A stretch of DNA of 64,000 nt from Escherichia coli. Its GTDB lineage: Bacteria > Pseudomonadota > Gammaproteobacteria > Enterobacterales > Enterobacteriaceae. The notes beneath the pieces are model-generated. The model did not search any database. It was not told the DNA's origin and saw only the letters and a program-made list of their open reading frames with translations. Numbering within the stretch: position 1 is the first letter of the stretch; each line of letters opens with the position of its first letter. The stretch lies in the NCBI RefSeq assembly GCF_003334405.1, contig NZ_QOWM01000007.1; one strand, 5' to 3'. A program made the translations under genes and the position numbers. This document shows, in pieces, positions 9,423 to 60,382 of the stretch.

Positions 9423-9517
9423 TGGCGGAAGATCACAGGAGTCGAACCTGCCCGGGACCGCTGGCGGCCCCAACTGGATTTGAAGTCCAGCCGCCTCACC
9501 GGAGACGACGATCTTCC
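9423..9517 (-). tRNA. selC: tRNA-Sec (selenocysteine, anticodon UCA)
   Basis: The reverse complement of 9423..9517 reads GGAAGATCGTCGTCTCCGGTGAGGCGGCTGGACTTCAAATCCAGTTGGGGCCGCCAGCGGTCCCGGGCAGGTTCGACTCCTGTGATCTTCCGCCA, the 95-nt E. coli selC tRNA with long variable arm and encoded CCA. Confidence 0.97.
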
Positions 9518-16794: not shown

Positions 16795-16989
16795 CGAAAA
16801 CAATCCCGTGGTAGCAAAGCGGGCATTTTAGCTGACCGAAAGAGAAAAGCAAACGTTTGCCACATCCTCATCTAAATATTTAAATGAGATAAATGCACTT
16901 TTTTATATAACTTTTGGTATTTTTCTGCTTAAAATCCATGCCATTTGTTCATTAACAGCTGAGAATTTGACCCAGGAAAGCATAACTCG

Positions 16990-17042
16990 ATACCCGTCAT
17001 AGTTCATGAAGTTGCCACTGCGCGATGAAGTATGACGAGTAT
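16990..17042. repeat. short imperfect palindrome related to ERIC/IRU termini
   Basis: atacccgtcatagttcatgaag ... cgatgaagtatgacgagtat: the two arms are inverted complements (17 of 20) and share the [16 protein letters not shown] motif with the element at 43725..43848. Confidence 0.4.
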
Positions 17043-17073
17043 GAAAGAGTGATGCGGATACAAAGGAGTAACT

Positions 17074-37519: not shown

Positions 37520-37558
37520 CAGTATTCGGGTAGCTGTTGAGCCTGGGGCGGTAGCGTG
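37520..37558 (+). promoter_or_regulatory. JUMPstart sequence containing the ops element (GGCGGTAG, 37547..37554) in the waaQ leader
   Basis: cagtattcgggtagctgttgagcctggggcggtagcgtg matches the JUMPstart consensus; ops is the RfaH recruitment site. Confidence 0.85.
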
Positions 37559-39797: not shown

Positions 39798-40587
39798 ATT
39801 AGAAGAGCCACTTGCCACACTCTGGCGTGGTAAAGATGCCTTTGCAGAAGTTAAAAAACTGAATGGCGAGGTCTTCCGTGAACTGGAGACGCGTCGCACA
39901 TTACGCTTTGAACTGGCCGGCAAAAGTTATTTCCTCAAATGGCACAAAGGGACGACCCTAAAGGAGATTATAAAAAATCTGCTCTCATTGCGGATGCCCG
40001 TTTTAGGTGCAGACAGAGAGTGGCACGCTATTCATCGACTGCATGATGTCGGTGTTGATACGATGCACGGAATAGGATTTGGTGAAAAAGGGTTAAATCC
40101 ATTAACTCGCACATCATTTATTATTACCGAAGATCTCACTCCCACAATTAGCCTTGAAGATTATTGTGCAGATTGGGCGGTCAACCCGCCTGATGTACAT
40201 ATTAAGCGTATGCTGATCGCGCGTGTGGCAACCATGGTGCGCAAAATGCATGCAGCAGGGATTAATCACCGTGATTGTTATATCTGCCACTTTTTACTCC
40301 ATTTGCCATTTACTGGCCGGGAAGATGAATTAAAAATTTCGGTTATCGATCTGCACCGGGCACAGATACGTGCAAAAGTACCACGTCGTTGGCGGGATAA
40401 AGATTTGATTGGTTTATATTTCTCATCAATGAATATTGGTCTGACGCAGAGAGATATCTGGCGATTTATGAAGGTTTATTTTGGGATGCCTTTACGCGAT
40501 ATTTATAGACTTGAGATTGATTTACTTAAAAAGGCAAGGATTAAAGCAGGAAAAATAGAAGCAAGAACAATAAGAAAAAACTTGTAA
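39790..40587 (+). CDS. waaP: LPS core heptose(I) kinase
   Basis: 265-aa kinase-like ORF matching WaaP; overlaps the waaG 3' end. Confidence 0.95.
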
Positions 40588-40619
40588 ATAGTATTTTATT
40601 ACAAAAAGGGATTCTAAAA

Positions 40620-41600
40620 TTGTTGAAATATAGAAACTTCGTTGCTAAGAAGAAAAATTTATACCAAAACGAAGTGTCGTATGTTAAAAATTTACATATT
40701 GCACTATGCTTTGACCGTGAATTCATAATGCCAGCGGGTGTTGCATTATATTCAATTATATCCAACAATAGACATATTAACCTTCATTTTCACCTTCTTA
40801 TATCAGGCATAGAAGAAAAGGAGTGTTCAGCTTTTTACGAACTAGAAGGTCCTAATACATCAATATCTGTATATTATATAACTGATAAATTTGACATTAA
40901 TCCGGATACATTAGTTCTTGGTATTCCTTTATCAACATGTTTACGTTTTTTAATCCCAGAAGTTATTGATGATAAAATAAATAAGATACTTTATCTTGAC
41001 TGTGATGTCATATGTAATGGTCCTTTAGATGAACTGGTTGATTATAATTTAAATGCTGATATTGCATGTGTAATTCCAGATTCGCCAGAAATGCAAGAAC
41101 GTGTAAAAAAATTAGACTATGGCATTGAGTTTATTAATTATTTTAATGCCGGGGTTATGTTTATTAATACCAGCGAATGGAAAAAAAATAATATAACACA
41201 AAAAGCGTTAGAAATGATCAACAGTGGAAAAGTATATAGGTATGCAGATCAGGATGTGCTCAATATTTTACTTAATGGACGAGTGCATTACCTTGATAAG
41301 AAGTACAATAATAAGACAACATTGTCAGTACGATGTGATGAAGAACAAAAAAACTTGCCCAACACAATTATAATGCATTATGTTACCCAGAATAAACCAT
41401 GGTACAAAATATTTAGAGCACAAAATTTTGATCATTATTTTTCAAATTCTCCTTGGAAGAACCATAAAAGAAATCTAGCTCCATCATCAAGTGAGATTAG
41501 GTTAAAGTCTAAAGTTTTTTGGCTAGAAGGAAAATATTGTAAAGCCATTTCTTATTATTATAAGTATTTACTTGTTAAATTATTTGGCTTAAAGATTTAG
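40620..41600 (+). CDS. GT8-family LPS outer-core glycosyltransferase (paralog 1, at the position waaS occupies in K-12)
   Basis: 326-aa ORF with GT8 motifs seen directly: YLDCDVIC (DxD), YFNAGVMFIN, ADQDVLN, QNKPWYK; TTG start per ORF track, so the start is uncertain; N-terminal region is divergent (ALCFDREF where the other two have AYGxDxNY-type). Confidence 0.75.
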   Translation: MLKYRNFVAKKKNLYQNEVSYVKNLHIALCFDREFIMPAGVALYSIISNNRHINLHFHLLISGIEEKECSAFYELEGPNTSISVYYITDKFDINPDTLVLGIPLSTCLRFLIPEVIDDKINKILYLDCDVICNGPLDELVDYNLNADIACVIPDSPEMQERVKKLDYGIEFINYFNAGVMFINTSEWKKNNITQKALEMINSGKVYRYADQDVLNILLNGRVHYLDKKYNNKTTLSVRCDEEQKNLPNTIIMHYVTQNKPWYKIFRAQNFDHYFSNSPWKNHKRNLAPSSSEIRLKSKVFWLEGKYCKAISYYYKYLLVKLFGLKI

Positions 41601-41613
41601 CTGGAATGAAATT

Positions 41614-42693
41614 ATGAAAATAGCCTTTATTGGCGAAGCTGTTTCTGGATTTGGCGGCATGGAAACAGTCATTCGTGATGTTATTACTACCTTCAGGCAA
41701 CAACATATCCAAAGTGAAATTTTTTTCTTTTGTCGTAATGACAAAATGGATAAGGGATGGCTGGAAGGTATTAAGTACTCGTGTTCATTTTCCAATATTC
41801 GCTTAGGTTTTTTGCGTCGCGCGAAACATATTCATGCTTTAAGCAAATGGCTTCATGATTATCAGCCAGATGTTGTTATTTGTATTGACGTGATCTCGTG
41901 TTTGTATGCGGCCAAAGCTCGTAAAAAATCGGGGATTGATGTACCTGTATTTTCATGGCCGCATTTTTCTTTAGATCATAAAAAACATGCCGAATATATC
42001 ACCTGTGCCGACTATCATTTAGCCATCAGCTCTGGTATTAAACAGCAAATGATTAGCCGGGGTGTACCAGAATCGACAATAAACGTTATTTTTAATCCCG
42101 TTGAGGCGAAAAATTCAGTCATTCCTGCACCCGGGGAAGGCGAAACGGCAACATTCATTTATGTTGGGCGCATGAAATTTGAAGGCCAAAAGCGCGTAAA
42201 AGATCTGCTTGATGGCTTATCACAAGTGCAAGGTGACTGGAAACTTCATGTATTGGGAGATGGCTCCGATTTCGAAAAATGCCAGGCTTATGGTAGAGGA
42301 TTAAATATTGATGATCGAATTGTCTGGTATGGTTGGCAACAACATCCCTGGAAATTAGTTCAGCAAGATATTAAAAAAGTGAGTGCATTATTACTCACGT
42401 CATCTTTTGAAGGTTTCCCAATGACTCTACTTGAAGCCTTGTCGTGGGGGATCCCTTGTATCAGTGCAGATTGTGTCTCCGGGCCTGTTGATATCATTCA
42501 GCCTGATGTTAATGGTCATTTATATCAACCGGGGGATATGACCGGTTTTGTTGCTCTTCTCAATAAATACATAGCCGGTGAAATTCACATCGCACATGAA
42601 AAAATTCCGGCGTCGATCGATAAATTTTATCAACCGAAATATTACGACAGATTGCAAAAGATAATTATTTCTGTTATTTCCCGGAGGAAATAA
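41614..42693 (+). CDS. waaB: UDP-galactose:(glucosyl)LPS alpha-1,6-galactosyltransferase (GT4)
   Basis: 359-aa ORF starting MKIAFIGEAVSGFGGMETVI, collinear with recalled WaaB; GT4 EX7E-type C-terminal region. Confidence 0.85.
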   Translation: MKIAFIGEAVSGFGGMETVIRDVITTFRQQHIQSEIFFFCRNDKMDKGWLEGIKYSCSFSNIRLGFLRRAKHIHALSKWLHDYQPDVVICIDVISCLYAAKARKKSGIDVPVFSWPHFSLDHKKHAEYITCADYHLAISSGIKQQMISRGVPESTINVIFNPVEAKNSVIPAPGEGETATFIYVGRMKFEGQKRVKDLLDGLSQVQGDWKLHVLGDGSDFEKCQAYGRGLNIDDRIVWYGWQQHPWKLVQQDIKKVSALLLTSSFEGFPMTLLEALSWGIPCISADCVSGPVDIIQPDVNGHLYQPGDMTGFVALLNKYIAGEIHIAHEKIPASIDKFYQPKYYDRLQKIIISVISRRK

Positions 42694-43712
42694 TGCAGCA
42701 GGTTTTTTTCCAGGAGACTGAGTTTCTCAATTCGGTTATTGATTATAATCATAAAATAGAAGCAGAAAATCTTTGTCTGGATATTGCTTATGGGACTGAC
42801 AAAAATTTTCTTTTTGGATGCGGAATATCGATTGCTTCAATATTAAAATATAATGAAGGAAATCAATTATGCTTTCATATTTTTACTGATTATTTCGGTG
42901 ATGACGATCGCAAATATTTTGATGCCCTGGCCAGGCAATATAAAACAAGAATTAAGATATATTTAATTAATGGTGATCGACTCCGTTCATTACCCTGCAC
43001 CAAGAACTGGACTCATGCTATTTATTTTCGTTTTGTTATCGCCGATTACTTTTTTAATAAAGCACCCAAAGTTCTTTATCTGGATGCAGATATTATTTGT
43101 CAGGGAACTATAGAACCACTTATCAATTACACGTTTTCTGAACATACAGTCGCAATGGTTGTTACAGAAGGACAAAAAGACTGGTGGGCAAAACGTGCTC
43201 ATTCGTTAGGTGTTGCTGGGATTGCTAATGGTTACTTTAACTCCGGTTTTTTACTGATTAATACTAATCAATGGACGAATGAGCGGGTTTCTGCACGGGC
43301 CATTGCAATGTTAAGTGATCCAGAGATAGTCAAAAAAATAACACATCCTGATCAGGATGTATTAAATATGTTATTGGCAGACAAACTTGTTTATGCTGAT
43401 ATTAAATATAACACTCAGTTTAGTTTAAATTATCAACTAAAAGAAAGTTTTAAAAACCCAGTAACTAACGATACAGTTTTTATTCATTATATTGGTCCAA
43501 CTAAACCCTGGCATGACTGGGCCTGGGATTATCCAATATCACAAGCTTTTATGGCGGCAAAAAATGCTTCACCATGGAAGGATACTGCGTTATTGAAACC
43601 GGTTAATAGTAATCAATTAAGATACAGTGCTAAACATATGTTGAAAAAAAAGCAATATATCAAAGGATTTGACAACTATCTTTTGTATTTTATAAAAAAG
43701 CTAAAGCATTAA
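42693..43712 (+). CDS. waaO: GT8-family LPS outer-core glucosyltransferase (WaaO/WaaI-like, by motif and position)
   Basis: 339-aa ORF with motifs IAYGTDKNF, YLDADIIC, YFNSGFLLIN, PDQDVLN, GPTKPWH; start overlaps the waaB stop; the name is assigned by synteny only. Confidence 0.7.
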   Translation: MQQVFFQETEFLNSVIDYNHKIEAENLCLDIAYGTDKNFLFGCGISIASILKYNEGNQLCFHIFTDYFGDDDRKYFDALARQYKTRIKIYLINGDRLRSLPCTKNWTHAIYFRFVIADYFFNKAPKVLYLDADIICQGTIEPLINYTFSEHTVAMVVTEGQKDWWAKRAHSLGVAGIANGYFNSGFLLINTNQWTNERVSARAIAMLSDPEIVKKITHPDQDVLNMLLADKLVYADIKYNTQFSLNYQLKESFKNPVTNDTVFIHYIGPTKPWHDWAWDYPISQAFMAAKNASPWKDTALLKPVNSNQLRYSAKHMLKKKQYIKGFDNYLLYFIKKLKH

Positions 43713-43724
43713 TACTGATAATCT

Positions 43725-43848
43725 ATACTCTAAATAATTCGAGTTGCAGGACAAAAAGCCAGTGGCGTTTTGAGGAACGCTTGCGTTGGCCCTGAAATGC
43801 CGAGTAACTCGCCGATGCAGCACATGCAACTTGAAGTATAACGAGTAT
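43725..43848. repeat. ERIC/IRU-related imperfect palindromic element with divergent core
   Basis: Termini atactc...ttcgagttgca and tgcaacttgaagtataacgagtat are inverted complements and resemble the ends of the ERIC copy at 51001..51133; occupies the 163-bp gap between two GT8 genes. Confidence 0.45.
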
Positions 43849-43875
43849 ATAAAGTAATGATATAAGGATAGCCTT

Positions 43876-44892
43876 GTGAACTCATTTCCTGCCATAGAGA
43901 TAGATAAAGTTAAAGCCTGGGATTTTAGGCTTATTGATGAAAATACTGCTGAAAGTTTAAATGTTGCCTATGGTGTCGATTCCAATTATCTTGATGGTGT
44001 AGGTGTTTCCATTACTTCAATTGTCATTAATAATCGACATGTTAATCTTGATTTTTATATTATTGCTGATGTTTATAACGACGATTTCTTTCAAAAAGTT
44101 GAGAAACTTGCTGAGCAATACCAATTAAGAATCACACTTTATAGAATAAATACTGATAATCTTCAGTGCCTGCCTTGTACACAAGTCTGGTCAAGAGCAA
44201 TGTACTTCCGTTTATTTGCTTTTCAATTATTGGGAGTAACACTTAATCGTTTGCTTTATCTTGATGCCGATGTAGTTTGTAAGGGAAATATTAGTCAACT
44301 ATTGCATTTAGAGTTTAATGGAGCGGTGGCTGCAGTAGTCAGGGATGTAGACCCAATGCAGGAAAAGGCGGTAGTCAGATTATCTGATCCTGAACTTCGG
44401 GGGCAGTATTTTAATTCTGGTGTCGTTTACTTAGACCTAAAAAAATGGACAGAAGCAAAACTAACCGAAAAAGCACTGTCTATTCTTATGAGTAAAGATA
44501 GTATTTATAAGTATCCTGACCAGGACGTTATGAATGTCCTACTAAAAGGGATGACAATATTCCTGCCACGTGAGTTCAATACTATATATACAATAAAAAG
44601 TGAGTTAAAAGATAAAACGCATCAAAAATATAAAGAGTTGATAAAAGAGGATACTCTTCTTATTCATTATACTGGGGCCACCAAGCCGTGGCACAAATGG
44701 GCAATTTATCCATCGGTAAAATACTATAAAATAGCTTTAGAAAGATCCCCCTGGAAAGATGACTCACCACGAGATGCAAAATCAATTATTGAATTCAAAA
44801 AAAGATATAAACATCTGTTAGTGCAACATCATTATATCTCAGGACTCATTGCAGGAGTGTGTTATCTTTGCCGAAAATATTACCGTAAATAA
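43876..44892 (+). CDS. waaJ: GT8-family LPS outer-core glucosyltransferase (WaaR/WaaJ-like, by motif and position)
   Basis: 338-aa ORF, GTG start with AAGGA SD 7 nt upstream; motifs VAYGVDSNYL, YLDADVVC, YFNSGVVYLD, PDQDVMN, GATKPWHKW; the name is assigned by synteny only. Confidence 0.65.
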   Translation: MNSFPAIEIDKVKAWDFRLIDENTAESLNVAYGVDSNYLDGVGVSITSIVINNRHVNLDFYIIADVYNDDFFQKVEKLAEQYQLRITLYRINTDNLQCLPCTQVWSRAMYFRLFAFQLLGVTLNRLLYLDADVVCKGNISQLLHLEFNGAVAAVVRDVDPMQEKAVVRLSDPELRGQYFNSGVVYLDLKKWTEAKLTEKALSILMSKDSIYKYPDQDVMNVLLKGMTIFLPREFNTIYTIKSELKDKTHQKYKELIKEDTLLIHYTGATKPWHKWAIYPSVKYYKIALERSPWKDDSPRDAKSIIEFKKRYKHLLVQHHYISGLIAGVCYLCRKYYRK

Positions 44893-45679: not shown

Positions 45680-46489
45680 ATGAAGAATATTAGATACATT
45701 GACAAAAAAGATGTTGAAAACCTGATAGAAAGTAAAACGTCTGATGATGTTATTATTTTTCTTTCCGGCCCCACATCGCAAAAAACACCATTGTCAGTGC
45801 TGCAGACAAGGGATGTTATTGCTGTCAATGGTTCTGCACAATATCTATTAAGTCATAATATTATTCCCTATATTTATGTACTTACCGATGTTCGCTTTTT
45901 ACATCAACGGCGTGATGATTTTTATAAATTTAGCCAGAGAAGTCGTTATACCATCGTAAATGTTGACGTTTATGAACATGCTTCTGAAGAAGATAAGCGG
46001 TACATCCTTCAAAACTGCCTGGTACTACGTTCATTTTACCGCAGAGAAAAAGGTGGATTGATCAAGAAGATCAAGTTTAATATTTTGAGCCGAATTCATA
46101 AAGAGCTCCTGATCTCTGTACCTTTTTCTAAAAAAGGTCGTCTGGTTGGCTTTTGCAAGGATATTAACCTCGGTTATTGTTCATGCCATACCGTTGCTTT
46201 TGCTGCAATCCAAATAGCCTATTCGCTGAAGTATGCTCGTATTATCTGTTCAGGCCTTGATTTAACGGGTAGCTGTTCGCGTTTCTATGATGAAGATAAG
46301 AATCCTATGCCCTCAGAGTTGACTCGGGATTTATTCAAAATTTTACCATTTTTCCGTTTTATGCGTGAAAATATAGAAGATATCAATATTTATAATTTAT
46401 CCGACGATACTGCAATTCAATATGATATTATTCCCTATATGAAAATATCCGAAATTGAAGAGCCGTGTGTTTATGAAAAAATAAGCTAA
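45680..46489 (+). CDS. waaZ: LPS core biosynthesis protein WaaZ (Kdo III-related)
   Basis: 269-aa ORF starting MKNIRYIDKKDVENL, collinear with recalled WaaZ. Confidence 0.8.
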   Translation: MKNIRYIDKKDVENLIESKTSDDVIIFLSGPTSQKTPLSVLQTRDVIAVNGSAQYLLSHNIIPYIYVLTDVRFLHQRRDDFYKFSQRSRYTIVNVDVYEHASEEDKRYILQNCLVLRSFYRREKGGLIKKIKFNILSRIHKELLISVPFSKKGRLVGFCKDINLGYCSCHTVAFAAIQIAYSLKYARIICSGLDLTGSCSRFYDEDKNPMPSELTRDLFKILPFFRFMRENIEDINIYNLSDDTAIQYDIIPYMKISEIEEPCVYEKIS

Positions 46490-46541
46490 TATTTTATATG
46501 TGTTTATTACGTGTTATAAATTATATTGGAGTTGGCTAATA

Positions 46542-47684
46542 ATGATTAAAACAATAATATTTACCGTCACACCAATATTTTCTATACCGCCAAAAGGAGC
46601 TGCAGCGGTTGAAACATGGATTTATCAGGTCGCAAAAAGACTTTCGATTCCAGTAACTATCGCCTGTATTCGAAACGAAGGTTACCCAACCTACACAAAA
46701 GTAAATGATCACTGTGATATTCACTACATTGGTTTTAGTCGAGTCTATAAACGACTTTTCCAAAAGTGGACTCGACTTGATCCTGTGCCATATTCTCAGC
46801 GTATTTTAAATACCCAACCTAAAAACACTGATCCGAAAGACTCTGTTATTGTTATCCACAATAGCATGAAGCTGTATAAACAGATTCGTAGCAGAAGCCC
46901 TCACGCGCAGCTAGTTATGCATCTTCATAATGCTTTCGAGCCAGGTGAGTTAGACAAAAATGCAAAGATAATTGTTCCTAGCCAGTTTCTTTTCGATTTC
47001 TATTCGGAAAAAATGCCTGATGCAAATATTGCTATTGTGCCTAATGGTTTTTGTTCTGAATCGTATGAACAAAATAATACTGAAGATTTGAGGCAGAAAC
47101 TGAACATTGATGCAAATGATACCGTGTTATTATTTGCAGGAAGGATATCACCAGATAAAGGTTGCCTGATGCTTATGGAGGCTTTTAATCAGCTGAATAA
47201 GATACAAGATAACCTCAAACTGGTGATTGTCGGAGATCCTTTTGCCAGTAAAAAAGGCGAAAAAGCTGAATATCAGAAAAAAGTTCTGGATGCAGCGAAA
47301 GCTATTGGAGCGCAATGCATTATGGCGGGTGGACAGCCTCCAGAGCAGATGCATAACTATTACCGTTTAGCAGATTTAGTTGTTGTTCCTTCTCAGGTAG
47401 AAGAAGCTTTTTGTATGGTAGCTGTTGAAGCGATGGCGGCAGGTAAACCAGTGCTTGCCAGTCAAAAAGGTGGAATTAGTGAGTTTGTTCTGGAAGGAAT
47501 TACAGGCTATCACCTTGCAGAGCCTATGACATCTGAAAGTATTCTCGCGGATATTAAGCGCGTTTTGGCGGATGCTGACAGAGCTCAAATTGCTAAAAAT
47601 GCCCGAAATTTTGTTTTCTCAAAATATAGCTGGGAACATGTTACTCAGCGTTTTGAAGCACAAATACAAGACTGGTTTGGTTAA
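46542..47684 (+). CDS. waaK: GT4-family LPS outer-core glycosyltransferase (WaaK-like, terminal GlcNAc transferase of R2/Salmonella cores)
   Basis: About 380-aa product from MIKTIIFTVTPIFSIPP (ORF track starts 14 codons earlier); GT4 motifs (EAFCMVAVEAMAAGKPV); not a GT9 heptosyltransferase like K-12 WaaU. Confidence 0.75.
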   Translation: MIKTIIFTVTPIFSIPPKGAAAVETWIYQVAKRLSIPVTIACIRNEGYPTYTKVNDHCDIHYIGFSRVYKRLFQKWTRLDPVPYSQRILNTQPKNTDPKDSVIVIHNSMKLYKQIRSRSPHAQLVMHLHNAFEPGELDKNAKIIVPSQFLFDFYSEKMPDANIAIVPNGFCSESYEQNNTEDLRQKLNIDANDTVLLFAGRISPDKGCLMLMEAFNQLNKIQDNLKLVIVGDPFASKKGEKAEYQKKVLDAAKAIGAQCIMAGGQPPEQMHNYYRLADLVVVPSQVEEAFCMVAVEAMAAGKPVLASQKGGISEFVLEGITGYHLAEPMTSESILADIKRVLADADRAQIAKNARNFVFSKYSWEHVTQRFEAQIQDWFG

Positions 47685-47702
47685 AAATTATTGGATTTGA
47701 AG

Positions 47703-47740
47703 AGCCTGCCTGAACTTAATGTCAGGCAGGCTTTTTTTTA
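47703..47740. terminator. bidirectional rho-independent terminator between waaK and waaL
   Basis: agcctgcctga-acttaatg-tcaggcaggct followed by T8; the waaL stop codon lies within the T-tract. Confidence 0.75.
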
Positions 47741-48955
47741 TTTATTCCGCATTGCTAACAGTAAACCAACAATCAAGCCAATTGGTTTGAGATCAACTTC
47801 CTCGAAGTTACCTCGAATAATATAAAAGCTTACAAGCGTTAAAAATAGTAGTAATTGACCATTATAAGGAGTGACGACAACTGTTTTAAACGTTGCATTA
47901 GCTGTCTCTTTGATAATAGAGCCATACAGATAAAGTAAAGCGAGTAGTCCAGCCAAACCCGCTGCAAACCAAATTGACAAAACAACGTTGTGTGGCCCAA
48001 TGGATTGCCTGAACTTCCATGACGGAAAATCTACAACACGCTTATTATATATTGCATGGTAAATATCATCGCCGTAGCCATATCCCTTAAGAGGATTTTC
48101 CATAATTAATGTCCACGCCGTACCTTGAGTACCATTGGTATAGCGATAAGAACTGTCGGTCTGTTGAAGTTTATAAATAAGCCTGTCTTTACCAGCATGA
48201 TCACCTTTATAGGTAAATACACCCACTGCGGCAACAGAAATAACGATGGAAGTCAGCATCAATAATTTCCACTGACGATTTAAGATTAACCATAGCAGAG
48301 TCACTATGAATACTGCCAGCCATGCACCACGAGACAGCGTTCCTAATAGCAGAAATAAGAAAACTGCACTAAAAATTACGAATGCTATTTTATAAGAGGT
48401 TTTCTTGATAAGCCAAAGGTTTAATAATGCTGGAAACAGAAACACCATTGAATCGGAAATACTACGGTGTTCATAGGTGGAAAATGGCATTATTCCTTTA
48501 TTATAATCCTGAATATAAAGAATAAGTTCAACAAGACAACGTAAGCCAAGTCCGGTAACTAATGAGTATAGTACAATTTTACCAATGCTTTCATTATCTT
48601 CATCTTTTAATAATGCAGGTATAAGTAAACTATAGGCCAAAAATCCTTTAAGTACCGTATTACTGAATTCTTTAAAACTGATTTTCAGATCAGGTGATAT
48701 AAAAGTAGCATATAAAAGAATGAGTGATAGTGCCAGGACACTATAAAAAAGATTATTTTTATAGAGTACTTTAAATGTTCCCGGAGCACGAGAAACTTGA
48801 TAGATTACCGTAATAATCATTAGTATAGATATGATGTGTTTATAACGGGTTATACCATCAAGGAAAAAGGTTGCAATAAAGAGGAATACCAACGCTTTAT
48901 TCCAGTACGGTTTCCACTTTTCTTTATTACGTAGCGCCAGCGAGGCTGTTAACAT
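47738..48955 (-). CDS. waaL: O-antigen ligase
   Basis: 405-aa polytopic membrane ORF at the conserved waaL position; AT-rich. Confidence 0.88.
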   Translation of the reverse strand: MLTASLALRNKEKWKPYWNKALVFLFIATFFLDGITRYKHIISILMIITVIYQVSRAPGTFKVLYKNNLFYSVLALSLILLYATFISPDLKISFKEFSNTVLKGFLAYSLLIPALLKDEDNESIGKIVLYSLVTGLGLRCLVELILYIQDYNKGIMPFSTYEHRSISDSMVFLFPALLNLWLIKKTSYKIAFVIFSAVFLFLLLGTLSRGAWLAVFIVTLLWLILNRQWKLLMLTSIVISVAAVGVFTYKGDHAGKDRLIYKLQQTDSSYRYTNGTQGTAWTLIMENPLKGYGYGDDIYHAIYNKRVVDFPSWKFRQSIGPHNVVLSIWFAAGLAGLLALLYLYGSIIKETANATFKTVVVTPYNGQLLLFLTLVSFYIIRGNFEEVDLKPIGLIVGLLLAMRNK

Positions 48956-48993
48956 TGCTTCTCCACCATCTTAAATAATATATAACGTATTAA

Positions 48994-49950
48994 TCAGGAA
49001 TTGATTTTATTAAATACCGTTTCTGCAGTCAGATGAGCAAGATCTTTATCTGGTGCCCTACAAACCACCTGATTCTTCCCATATCCGCCAATTAATCCCG
49101 GATCGGTTGGTCCATAAACCGTGATATTCGGTCGATCCAGTGCTGCAGTTAAATGACTTAACCCAGTGTCTACCGATACCACGAATTTCGCTCCGGCCAG
49201 CACACGGGCAACACCTTCCAGACTCATCTTCGGCAATACTTCAACATAAGCAAATCCTTCCGCCAGTCGTTTCGCCCGTTTTTCCTCATGCGGCGCACCC
49301 CACGGAAGTTTAATGCGAATCCCTGAATCTGCCAGTAAACCAATCAATTCTCGCCAGTGTTCTTCCGGCCAGTGTTTATCATCACGGGTCGTCGCATGAA
49401 GAAATACGGCATATTCGCCAGCATCTGTAGGCAGGTTCGTCAGAAAATGCTGTGCGATAGCATAATCGCCCTGGGTTTGCGGTTTGCTATAGCCCAGACT
49501 TTTGGCAAAAAGTTCGCGGATGCGTTCTACGGCGTGCTGCTGTTTTGCAATATGATGTTTACGATTGTAAAACAGGCTGGCTAAAGGTTCGCGAGCGGTT
49601 TGCCAGTCCATTCCATGCTTTACGCCATGCGCCAGACGCGTCACCAGCGCCGCGCTTTTTACCAGCCCCTGAGCATCGATAACTGCGTCATAGTTCTCTG
49701 CTTGTAGCGCTTCACGAAACGCTTTGCGTTCAGCTTTTATGGGGGCCGAGAACCAGGCTTTACGCCAGCGACGTATTGCCACAGGAATAACTCGCTCAAC
49801 GGCGGCGTGCCAGGAAGGAATCTGTGCGAACCCTTCTTCCACCACCCAGTCAAACTTAATCCCTGGGATTGCCTGCTGGGCATCAGTGAGTGCGGGCAAC
49901 GTATGGAGAACATCGCCCATCGACGATGTTTTAACGATCAAAACCCGCAT
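48994..49950 (-). CDS. waaC: LPS heptosyltransferase I (GT9)
   Basis: 318-aa ORF starting MRVLIVKTSSMGDVLHTLPALTDA; C-terminal approximately 25 residues differ from the K-12 sequence I recall. Confidence 0.93.
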   Translation of the reverse strand: MRVLIVKTSSMGDVLHTLPALTDAQQAIPGIKFDWVVEEGFAQIPSWHAAVERVIPVAIRRWRKAWFSAPIKAERKAFREALQAENYDAVIDAQGLVKSAALVTRLAHGVKHGMDWQTAREPLASLFYNRKHHIAKQQHAVERIRELFAKSLGYSKPQTQGDYAIAQHFLTNLPTDAGEYAVFLHATTRDDKHWPEEHWRELIGLLADSGIRIKLPWGAPHEEKRAKRLAEGFAYVEVLPKMSLEGVARVLAGAKFVVSVDTGLSHLTAALDRPNITVYGPTDPGLIGGYGKNQVVCRAPDKDLAHLTAETVFNKINS

Positions 49951-51000: not shown

Positions 51001-51133
51001 TCACTTCATCCTTCAAGCTGTCTCTGCGGCGGCTGCCTGCGTTCACTCCGGTCACTTACTTTTGTAAGCTCCCGGAGATTCACTTAGTTGCTGCCTTGAT
51101 ACCGCTCGAATGATTTTGTGAATTTACGTTGAT
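51001..51133. repeat. ERIC (enterobacterial repetitive intergenic consensus, IRU) element
   Basis: The minus strand carries GTGAATCTCCGGGAGCTTACAAAAGTAAGTGACCGGAGTGAACGC, matching the ERIC1R/ERIC2 primer-site core (GTGAATCCCCAGGAGCTTACAT / AAGTAAGTGACTGGGGTGAGCG) with 3 mismatches each; about 130 bp, imperfect palindrome; boundaries approximate. Confidence 0.8.
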
Positions 51134-60241: not shown

Positions 60242-60382
60242 TTTACCTGTCGTCTTTCATGATGCAGGCCGTTAGCTGCAATTAGGCCCCCAGCGACTTA
60301 TTGTTATAAGCTTCTGGGGACACTCCATTTTGCAGCCGCCCTGCAACATGAAATTTCAGGGTAAAAAAACAGGAGCTAAATT

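Follow-up and report, generated by a model that had tools for sequence, protein, structure and literature searches.

A putative core-deleted ERIC element in the waaO-waaJ spacer of the Escherichia coli lipopolysaccharide core operon

In the lipopolysaccharide (LPS) core locus of the Escherichia coli genome studied here, a palindromic stretch of DNA separates waaO from waaJ, which raises the questions of what this DNA is, how it came to lie there, and whether it affects the genes on either side. We analyzed a window of 64,000 nucleotides (contig NZ_QOWM01000007.1 of RefSeq assembly GCF_003334405.1), in which the waaO-waaJ intergenic spacer spans 43713-43875 on the plus strand. At 163 bp it is the largest gap of the waaQ operon, and the only sizeable one according to a first-pass annotation of the window, the next largest being 71 and 52 bp, and it is 100% identical to the spacer of E. 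coli strain M217. The RefSeq gene order is rfaQ-rfaG-rfaP-(GT8 gene)-waaB-waaO, then the spacer, then rfaJ-rfaY-waaZ-(GlcNAc transferase), with rfaL on the opposite strand. Upstream of the spacer, waaO extends from 42693 to 43712 on the plus strand (stop codon 43710-43712), and downstream waaJ (rfaJ) extends from 43876 to 44892 on the same strand. That both genes encode GT8 glycosyltransferases is borne out by Pfam PF01501/PF08437 on WaaJ relatives and by NCBIfam homology to WaaO, and the GTG start first proposed for waaJ (at 43876) is also the one in the RefSeq annotation and is kept in K-12-type loci. A JUMPstart (ops) element upstream of waaQ (37520-37558, plus strand; Rfam RF01707, 53.1 bits against a gathering score of 35) implies that the operon is RfaH-dependent and that the spacer is read through in that context, and we infer that the genes on both sides are co-transcribed within the long waaQ operon. 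A third GT8 paralogue (40620-41600), between rfaP and waaB, occupies the place of rfaS in K-12 and in the E2348/69-type locus. It is probably wabA, which stands in place of the K-12 waaS in the R2 arrangement described in a 2025 typing paper, where O127 strains are K-12/R2 hybrids (PMC13293308). Under that scheme, the locus in the window is canonical R2.

Within the spacer, alignment to the empty site and to canonical and long ERICs delimits an element of 126 bp (43724-43849, plus strand), counting a TA at each end. The first-pass annotation had described an element of about 125 bp with inverted termini, and this description holds: the left terminal inverted repeat (TIR; 43724-43748, plus strand) and the right one (43825-43849, plus strand) are arms of 25 nt that are 80% complementary and 76 nt apart. 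Neither arm has a second match at three or fewer mismatches in the 64-kb window, and none was found in 100 shuffles. The element begins 11 nt downstream of the waaO stop codon and ends 26 nt upstream of the waaJ GTG, with the AAGGA Shine-Dalgarno sequence of waaJ (43864-43868) lying outside both the element and its hairpin.

How the element arrived can be read from relatives that lack it. The same junction was compared in reference core-type loci, as the first-pass annotation had proposed, and there the spacer is 39 bp long and empty in both K-12-type loci and the E2348/69-type K-12/R2 hybrid. Outside E. coli, a Citrobacter rodentium-like locus has 35 bp at the orthologous junction, whereas Salmonella bongori and S. 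enterica have 17 bp, none of the three containing an ERIC there, and the gene order is the same in all of these loci. Aligned to the 39-bp spacers, the empty site reads AAC-TATA-AAG and the filled site ATC-TATA-CTC...GAG-TATATA-AAG, so that the filled site is longer by 124 bp, of which 122 bp are inserted DNA (43726-43847) and 2 bp the duplicated TA. The two copies of the target-site duplication are placed at 43724-43725 and 43848-43849, where their register is ambiguous within TATA (43724-43727) on the left and TATATA (43846-43851) on the right. We propose that the element inserted at the TA of a 39-bp waaO-waaJ spacer in an ancestor of the E. coli R2-type core locus; we know of no transposase for ERIC. 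This picture agrees with the description of ERICs as MITEs with TIRs, TA termini and target duplication (PMC2229807, PMC10969869), a TA-duplication footprint having been reported for ERIC and other bacterial MITEs, while the mobilization of ERICs in trans by a transposase is without experimental support (PMC2229807).

The ends of the element closely match the ERIC found between cusC and cusF in K-12: the left end (43725-43751) is identical at 27 of 27 positions, and the right end (43810-43849) at 37 of 40. Beyond these two ends, the element shares with canonical ERIC a terminal palindrome, the TA duplication, an intergenic transcribed site and a family dispersed through the Enterobacterales. 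It differs in the middle. The central core of the 127-bp consensus, its most conserved part (GTGAATCCCCAGGAGCTTACAT / AAGTAAGTGACTGGGGTGAGCG), which contains the ERIC1R/ERIC2 primer region targeted by ERIC-PCR, is absent from the element by alignment and by BLAST to the K-12 ERIC, and canonical positions ~29-87 have no counterpart in it. That consensus, known as ERIC, IRU or RU-1, reportedly goes back to Sharples and Lloyd in 1990 and to Hulton and coworkers in 1991. Where the canonical core would be, the element carries ~65 nt derived from a module; they are homologous to the ~70-nt module by which the long pepB-iscX ERIC is interrupted at exactly the same position. Positions 43724-43804 align to positions 1-81 of the 273-bp Escherichia ERIC (90.1% identity, E 5e-27), and the distal part together with the right TIR aligns to positions 225-273 (89.8%, E 2e-13). 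The segment derived from accessory module A of the long ERICs (43751-43804, plus strand) holds small hairpins at 43752-43772 (CAAAAAGCC-AGT-GGCGTTTTG) and at 43776-43787 (AACGC-TT-GCGTT).

Terminal homology, the palindrome, TA insertion opposite empty sites and dispersal are all found, and the core is not; judged from its sequence, the element belongs to the ERIC/IRU lineage, a membership that rests on the termini and on homology to the long ERIC forms rather than on the core. Because the canonical core is absent, we class it as a core-deleted ERIC derivative rather than as a canonical ERIC. The first-pass annotation had called the element ERIC-related, with conserved termini and a different core, and all three points stand, with the amendment that the different core can now be explained as accessory-module sequence. 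It had also set similarity to ERIC and retention of the inverted termini as the test by which the idea could fall, and alignment and the related copies reveal both.

The missing core is best understood against the long ERIC forms. Insertions of ~70 nt at fixed internal ERIC sites, as well as internal deletions, were reportedly described by Sharp and Leach in 1996, by Sharp in 1997, by Cromie and coworkers in 1997 and by Wilson and Sharp in 2006; the literature that we searched yielded no mention of an ERIC between waaO and waaJ. In its interior, the element is homologous to module A as it occurs in the 195-bp and 273-bp forms from Escherichia, Citrobacter, Serratia, Klebsiella and others, and it keeps the small module hairpins, so that it still folds as a whole, but it keeps modules and loses the core, which is the reverse of a plain insertion variant. 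Each of the two modules of the long ERICs consists of three or four small hairpins, and in the 271-273-bp ERICs of Escherichia modules A and B are paralogous (~70% identity) and flank the core in direct orientation. The deletion junction and distal segment of the element lie at 43801-43824 (plus strand), and together with the right TIR they make up the part that aligns to 225-273 of the 273-bp form; what is missing, between GGGCGA-like repeats, is the canonical core and most of module B. If a single deletion joined the GGGCGA repeats that modules A and B carry at equivalent positions, the product would be 127 bp long; the element has 126 bp, and its junction, compared by eye with the predicted one, agrees at 28 of 34 positions. 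The canonical core was thus most likely lost through one internal deletion of ~146 bp. Since such a deletion by itself predicts 127 bp, the likeness in length to canonical ERIC (126 against 127 bp) looks coincidental. As for mechanism, slippage from the end of module A to that of the core would leave nearly the same junction as unequal recombination between modules A and B. Since the modules are paralogous, in direct orientation and on either side of the core, loss of the core by unequal recombination would be easy, and possibly recurrent. At a divergence of ~10% from intact long copies, the element has the sequence of a decayed deletion derivative. It is best read as a non-autonomous mobile repeat (MITE) of the ERIC/IRU lineage in rearranged form, with both termini and part of the ~70-nt modules retained and the core between modules A and B lost.

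This form is shared with other copies. One genome per species was scanned with a pattern composed of the left terminus and the ~70-nt module, which returned 73 module-bearing ERIC loci in at least 12 genera of Enterobacterales (Escherichia, Citrobacter, Klebsiella, Serratia, Pectobacterium, Symbiopectobacterium, Leminorella, Salmonella, Kosakonia, Brenneria, Buttiauxella and Enterobacter). Their architecture is left TIR, module A, canonical core, optional module B and right TIR, and they fall into size classes of ~195 bp (module A and core), ~255-273 bp (module A, core and module B) and 120-144 bp (core-less). About 20 of the elements examined are core-less, including the one in the window and a second E. 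coli copy. Eleven others sit in a single Citrobacter amalonaticus genome, and more are found in Klebsiella, C. youngae, Serratia and Pectobacterium. The other E. coli copy, which lies between uhpA and a gene for a DUF6708 protein, has the same architecture and is 79.8% identical to the element in the window; it is present in 565 complete E. coli genomes, mainly of the ST131 lineage. The core-less form (120-144 bp, ~20 copies) is therefore a recognizable size class and no one-off. Whether its members transposed as core-less units or arose by deletion of a long ERIC in place, the same data fit both.

Could the palindrome instead have nothing to do with ERIC? It might be a chance or local palindrome, or the site of a gene for a small or antisense RNA, or part of a 64-codon open reading frame (ORF) that crosses the element on the minus strand (43701-43895). 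In a search at permissive thresholds, the element gives a weak end-to-end match, made through the termini only, to the antisense-RNA family V_AS5 (Rfam RF02818, Vibrio RNA AS5, 129 nt), at 16.5 bits (E 0.83) and far below the gathering score of 96. The K-12 cusC-cusF ERIC aligns to this same family end to end (44.5 bits, E 8.5e-9, also under the gathering score), so V_AS5 appears to be a differently named version of ERIC from Vibrio; ERIC as such has no family in Rfam. With termini identical or nearly identical to canonical ERIC, an interior homologous to ERIC modules and no promoter-like site that stands out, we regard an origin unrelated to ERIC as almost certainly wrong. ERICs are known to give rise to ORFs that run across them (PMC2759123), and the 64-aa minus-strand ORF is rejected as a gene on the same ground.

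At gathering thresholds, Rfam places no family over the element, and its matches in the whole window are a tRNA-Sec gene and the JUMPstart only. The tRNA-Sec gene, selC, is located at 9427-9517 on the minus strand (83.8 bits), and selC is a classic integration site of genomic islands. Elsewhere in the window, BLAST finds two to three further ERIC remnants. The hldD-waaF copy (51006-51116), in the opposite orientation, is 76.6% identical to the canonical ERIC of K-12 over positions 9-119 only, so its extreme termini are degraded. In K-12 the spacer that holds it (51004-51133 in the window) is without the ERIC and has ~12 bp between the aligned flanks. The hldD ORF in the window runs into the repeat (326 aa), and its C-terminus appears to have been replaced or extended by ERIC-derived codons. 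Upstream of gltS there is a small palindrome at 16975-17045. Along its right arm (17026-17042) it agrees with the right terminus of canonical ERIC at 17 of 17 positions, and it appears to be either what is left of an ERIC or one terminus duplicated in inverse orientation. A segment at 60288-60347 on the minus strand, upstream of an ORF that is probably grxC, weakly matches the ERIC core region (72.6% over 62 nt, E 0.006) and may be another decayed ERIC. The first-pass annotation had likened the ends of the waaO-waaJ element to those of the hldD-waaF and gltS-upstream copies, and this likeness is weak: for the gltS remnant it comes down to a shared stretch of 17 nt in the right terminus, and the hldD-waaF copy was not found when the element was compared by direct BLAST with the remainder of the window.

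Across complete E. coli genomes, the distribution of the element follows the core type. The filled spacer is present in 487 of 5,426 genomes, with a left flank of R2 type in 485 of them and a right flank of R2 type in 486, and no empty R2 allele was seen among the 5,426; the element is fixed in the R2-type locus. The spacer used as a query matched far more widely (5,411/5,426 genomes), the matches sampled being mostly to the right terminus; in Nissle 1917, for example, the match covers query positions 99-165 only, which correspond to the right end of the element and its right flank. The carriers are nearly identical over the whole locus, and because they are near-clonal there, conservation of the element is uninformative on selection.

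The same comparisons bear on the proposal of the first-pass annotation that the element lies at a likely module junction, that is, that it marks or caused a past recombination breakpoint between outer-core modules. The waa locus is indeed mosaic, with both the gene at 40620-41600 and the waaK/waaL end differing from K-12 (PMC13293308), but the true breaks in homology lie elsewhere: at ~40500-41613, where the GT8 gene replaces rfaS and there is no DNA homology to K-12, and, against K-12, at ~46444-49051 (the waaU/waaL end). Around the element itself, identity to K-12-type and hybrid loci in 200-bp windows is uniform at 83-93% on both sides, with no step, and the left flank, element and right flank occur together in the same ~485-487 genomes. 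What favors the proposal is a group of 21 K-12/R2 mosaic genomes that do not have the element, such as SCU-301, in which K-12-like sequence gives way to R2-like sequence at 43879-43927. A SNP-level mosaic map puts this switch 30-78 bp beyond the empty insertion site, on its right, where a conversion tract could plausibly have been stopped by the 124-bp heterology. SCU-301, however, has ~8 allele switches in the 4.9 kb from waaB to waaZ, so one of them would fall within 80 bp of any given site by chance about 1 time in 4. The recombination-junction idea is therefore unsupported, and we consider it very unlikely. In SCU-301 (NZ_CP051751.1, 107703-122215), rfaJ, rfaY and waaZ are annotated as frameshifted pseudogenes, and these frameshifts could reflect real decay or assembly error.

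There remains the question of whether the element acts on the operon. The spacer RNA folds at -44.6 kcal/mol (z = -2.78), with 1 of 200 shuffles folding equally well, and the element alone folds better in the transcribed strand (-41.8 kcal/mol) than in its complement (-34.8 kcal/mol), a preference for the forward strand that is seen in 16 of 20 core-less copies. In the transcript, the element would form a long and imperfect hairpin that leaves free both the stop codon of waaO on one side and the ribosome-binding site of waaJ on the other. Across the 20 related copies, 95.6% of cells in the TIR stem and module hairpins are paired; covariation is seen in 2 of 25 pairs only, including a UA/CG pair in the TIR, so the conservation of structure mainly reflects the conservation of sequence. 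Among module-bearing ERICs between co-directional ORFs, 21 share the orientation of the element and 8 have the other, a weak count that depends on crude ORF calls. Fold and orientation are together weak hints of constraint at the RNA level.

These hints speak for a functional cis-acting RNA element, which would be an attenuator within the operon or a site of RNA processing, kept for uncoupling expression of waaQ-waaO from that of waaJ-waaK. So does the position of the element just past a stop codon, for this is the situation of Yersinia ERICs, which, according to reviews that summarize work of De Gregorio and coworkers from 2005, lower the upstream transcript when they adjoin stop codons, via an RNase E site in the 3′ TIR (PMC2229807, PMC10969869). 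The signals expected of such a role, however, do not stand out. No terminator-like site was found on the plus strand over 43300-44300, the element's stem being followed by AUAAAGUAAUGAUAUAAGG and no U-tract, and a promoter scan gave no convincing signal within the element. Inspection by eye revealed no clear match to an RN-WUU-type RNase E motif in the 3′ TIR. RNA polymerase modified by RfaH resists termination, and an insertion like this element would for that reason be easily tolerated. Also against such a function are the identical gene order of the K-12-type, hybrid, Salmonella and Citrobacter rodentium-like loci that do without the element, its state as a decayed derivative, and the lack of evidence for selection among near-clonal carriers. 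A retained regulatory function of this kind is, on balance, doubtful, and nothing in the data shows that the element regulates the operon.

We find it highly probable, as a whole, that the DNA between waaO and waaJ is a core-deleted MITE of the ERIC lineage that inserted in an R2 ancestor and is most likely a passenger. Within this reading, a tolerated passenger is the likelier state, and a measurable post-transcriptional effect on segmental mRNA stability, modest at most, is possible but less likely than none. Any effect would be post-transcriptional and would alter the stability of the waaQ-waaO segment of the mRNA relative to the waaJ-waaK segment, either because the hairpin forms a barrier to 3′-to-5′ exonucleases or because an endonuclease cuts in or near the 3′ TIR, as in Yersinia ERICs. 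The two cases share a location between two genes in one presumed transcript next to a stop codon, a TIR hairpin and a TA duplication, and they differ in the apex of the hairpin, which the core-less interior of the E. coli element changes. REP/BIME sequences and the Correia elements of Neisseria (NEMIS) are likewise intercistronic palindromic repeats that fold in mRNA; their sequence families are unrelated to the element. REP can protect upstream RNA from exonucleases, and Correia can be cut by RNase III (PMC10969869).

A bolder version of this account would hold that core-less, module-only ERICs are a distinct MITE subfamily that transposes as a unit of ~122-141 bp, and that the R2 hairpin possibly splits the RfaH-dependent waaQ transcript into segments of unlike stability, tuning the ratio of the enzymes encoded before and after waaO. 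We think this improbable. If such a subfamily were real, ERICs could move without the canonical core, and copies of this kind would escape both ERIC-PCR and any census based on the consensus.

For a passenger of ERIC origin in the R2 locus, the mechanistic weight is small and the value mostly practical. The waaO-waaJ spacer offers a clean example, with filled and empty states side by side, of ERIC insertion and TA duplication inside an essential surface-glycan operon, and the extra 124 bp can serve as a simple marker that separates canonical R2 from K-12-type and K-12/R2 hybrid loci. It also illustrates that ERIC copies from which the entire primer-binding core has gone can still resemble the 127-bp ERIC in size and termini, which matters for ERIC-PCR and for repeat annotation. 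If the hairpin did shift the ratio of waaO to waaJ transcript, it would join the Yersinia ERICs as the second experimental example in which such a repeat tunes the expression of genes inside an operon.
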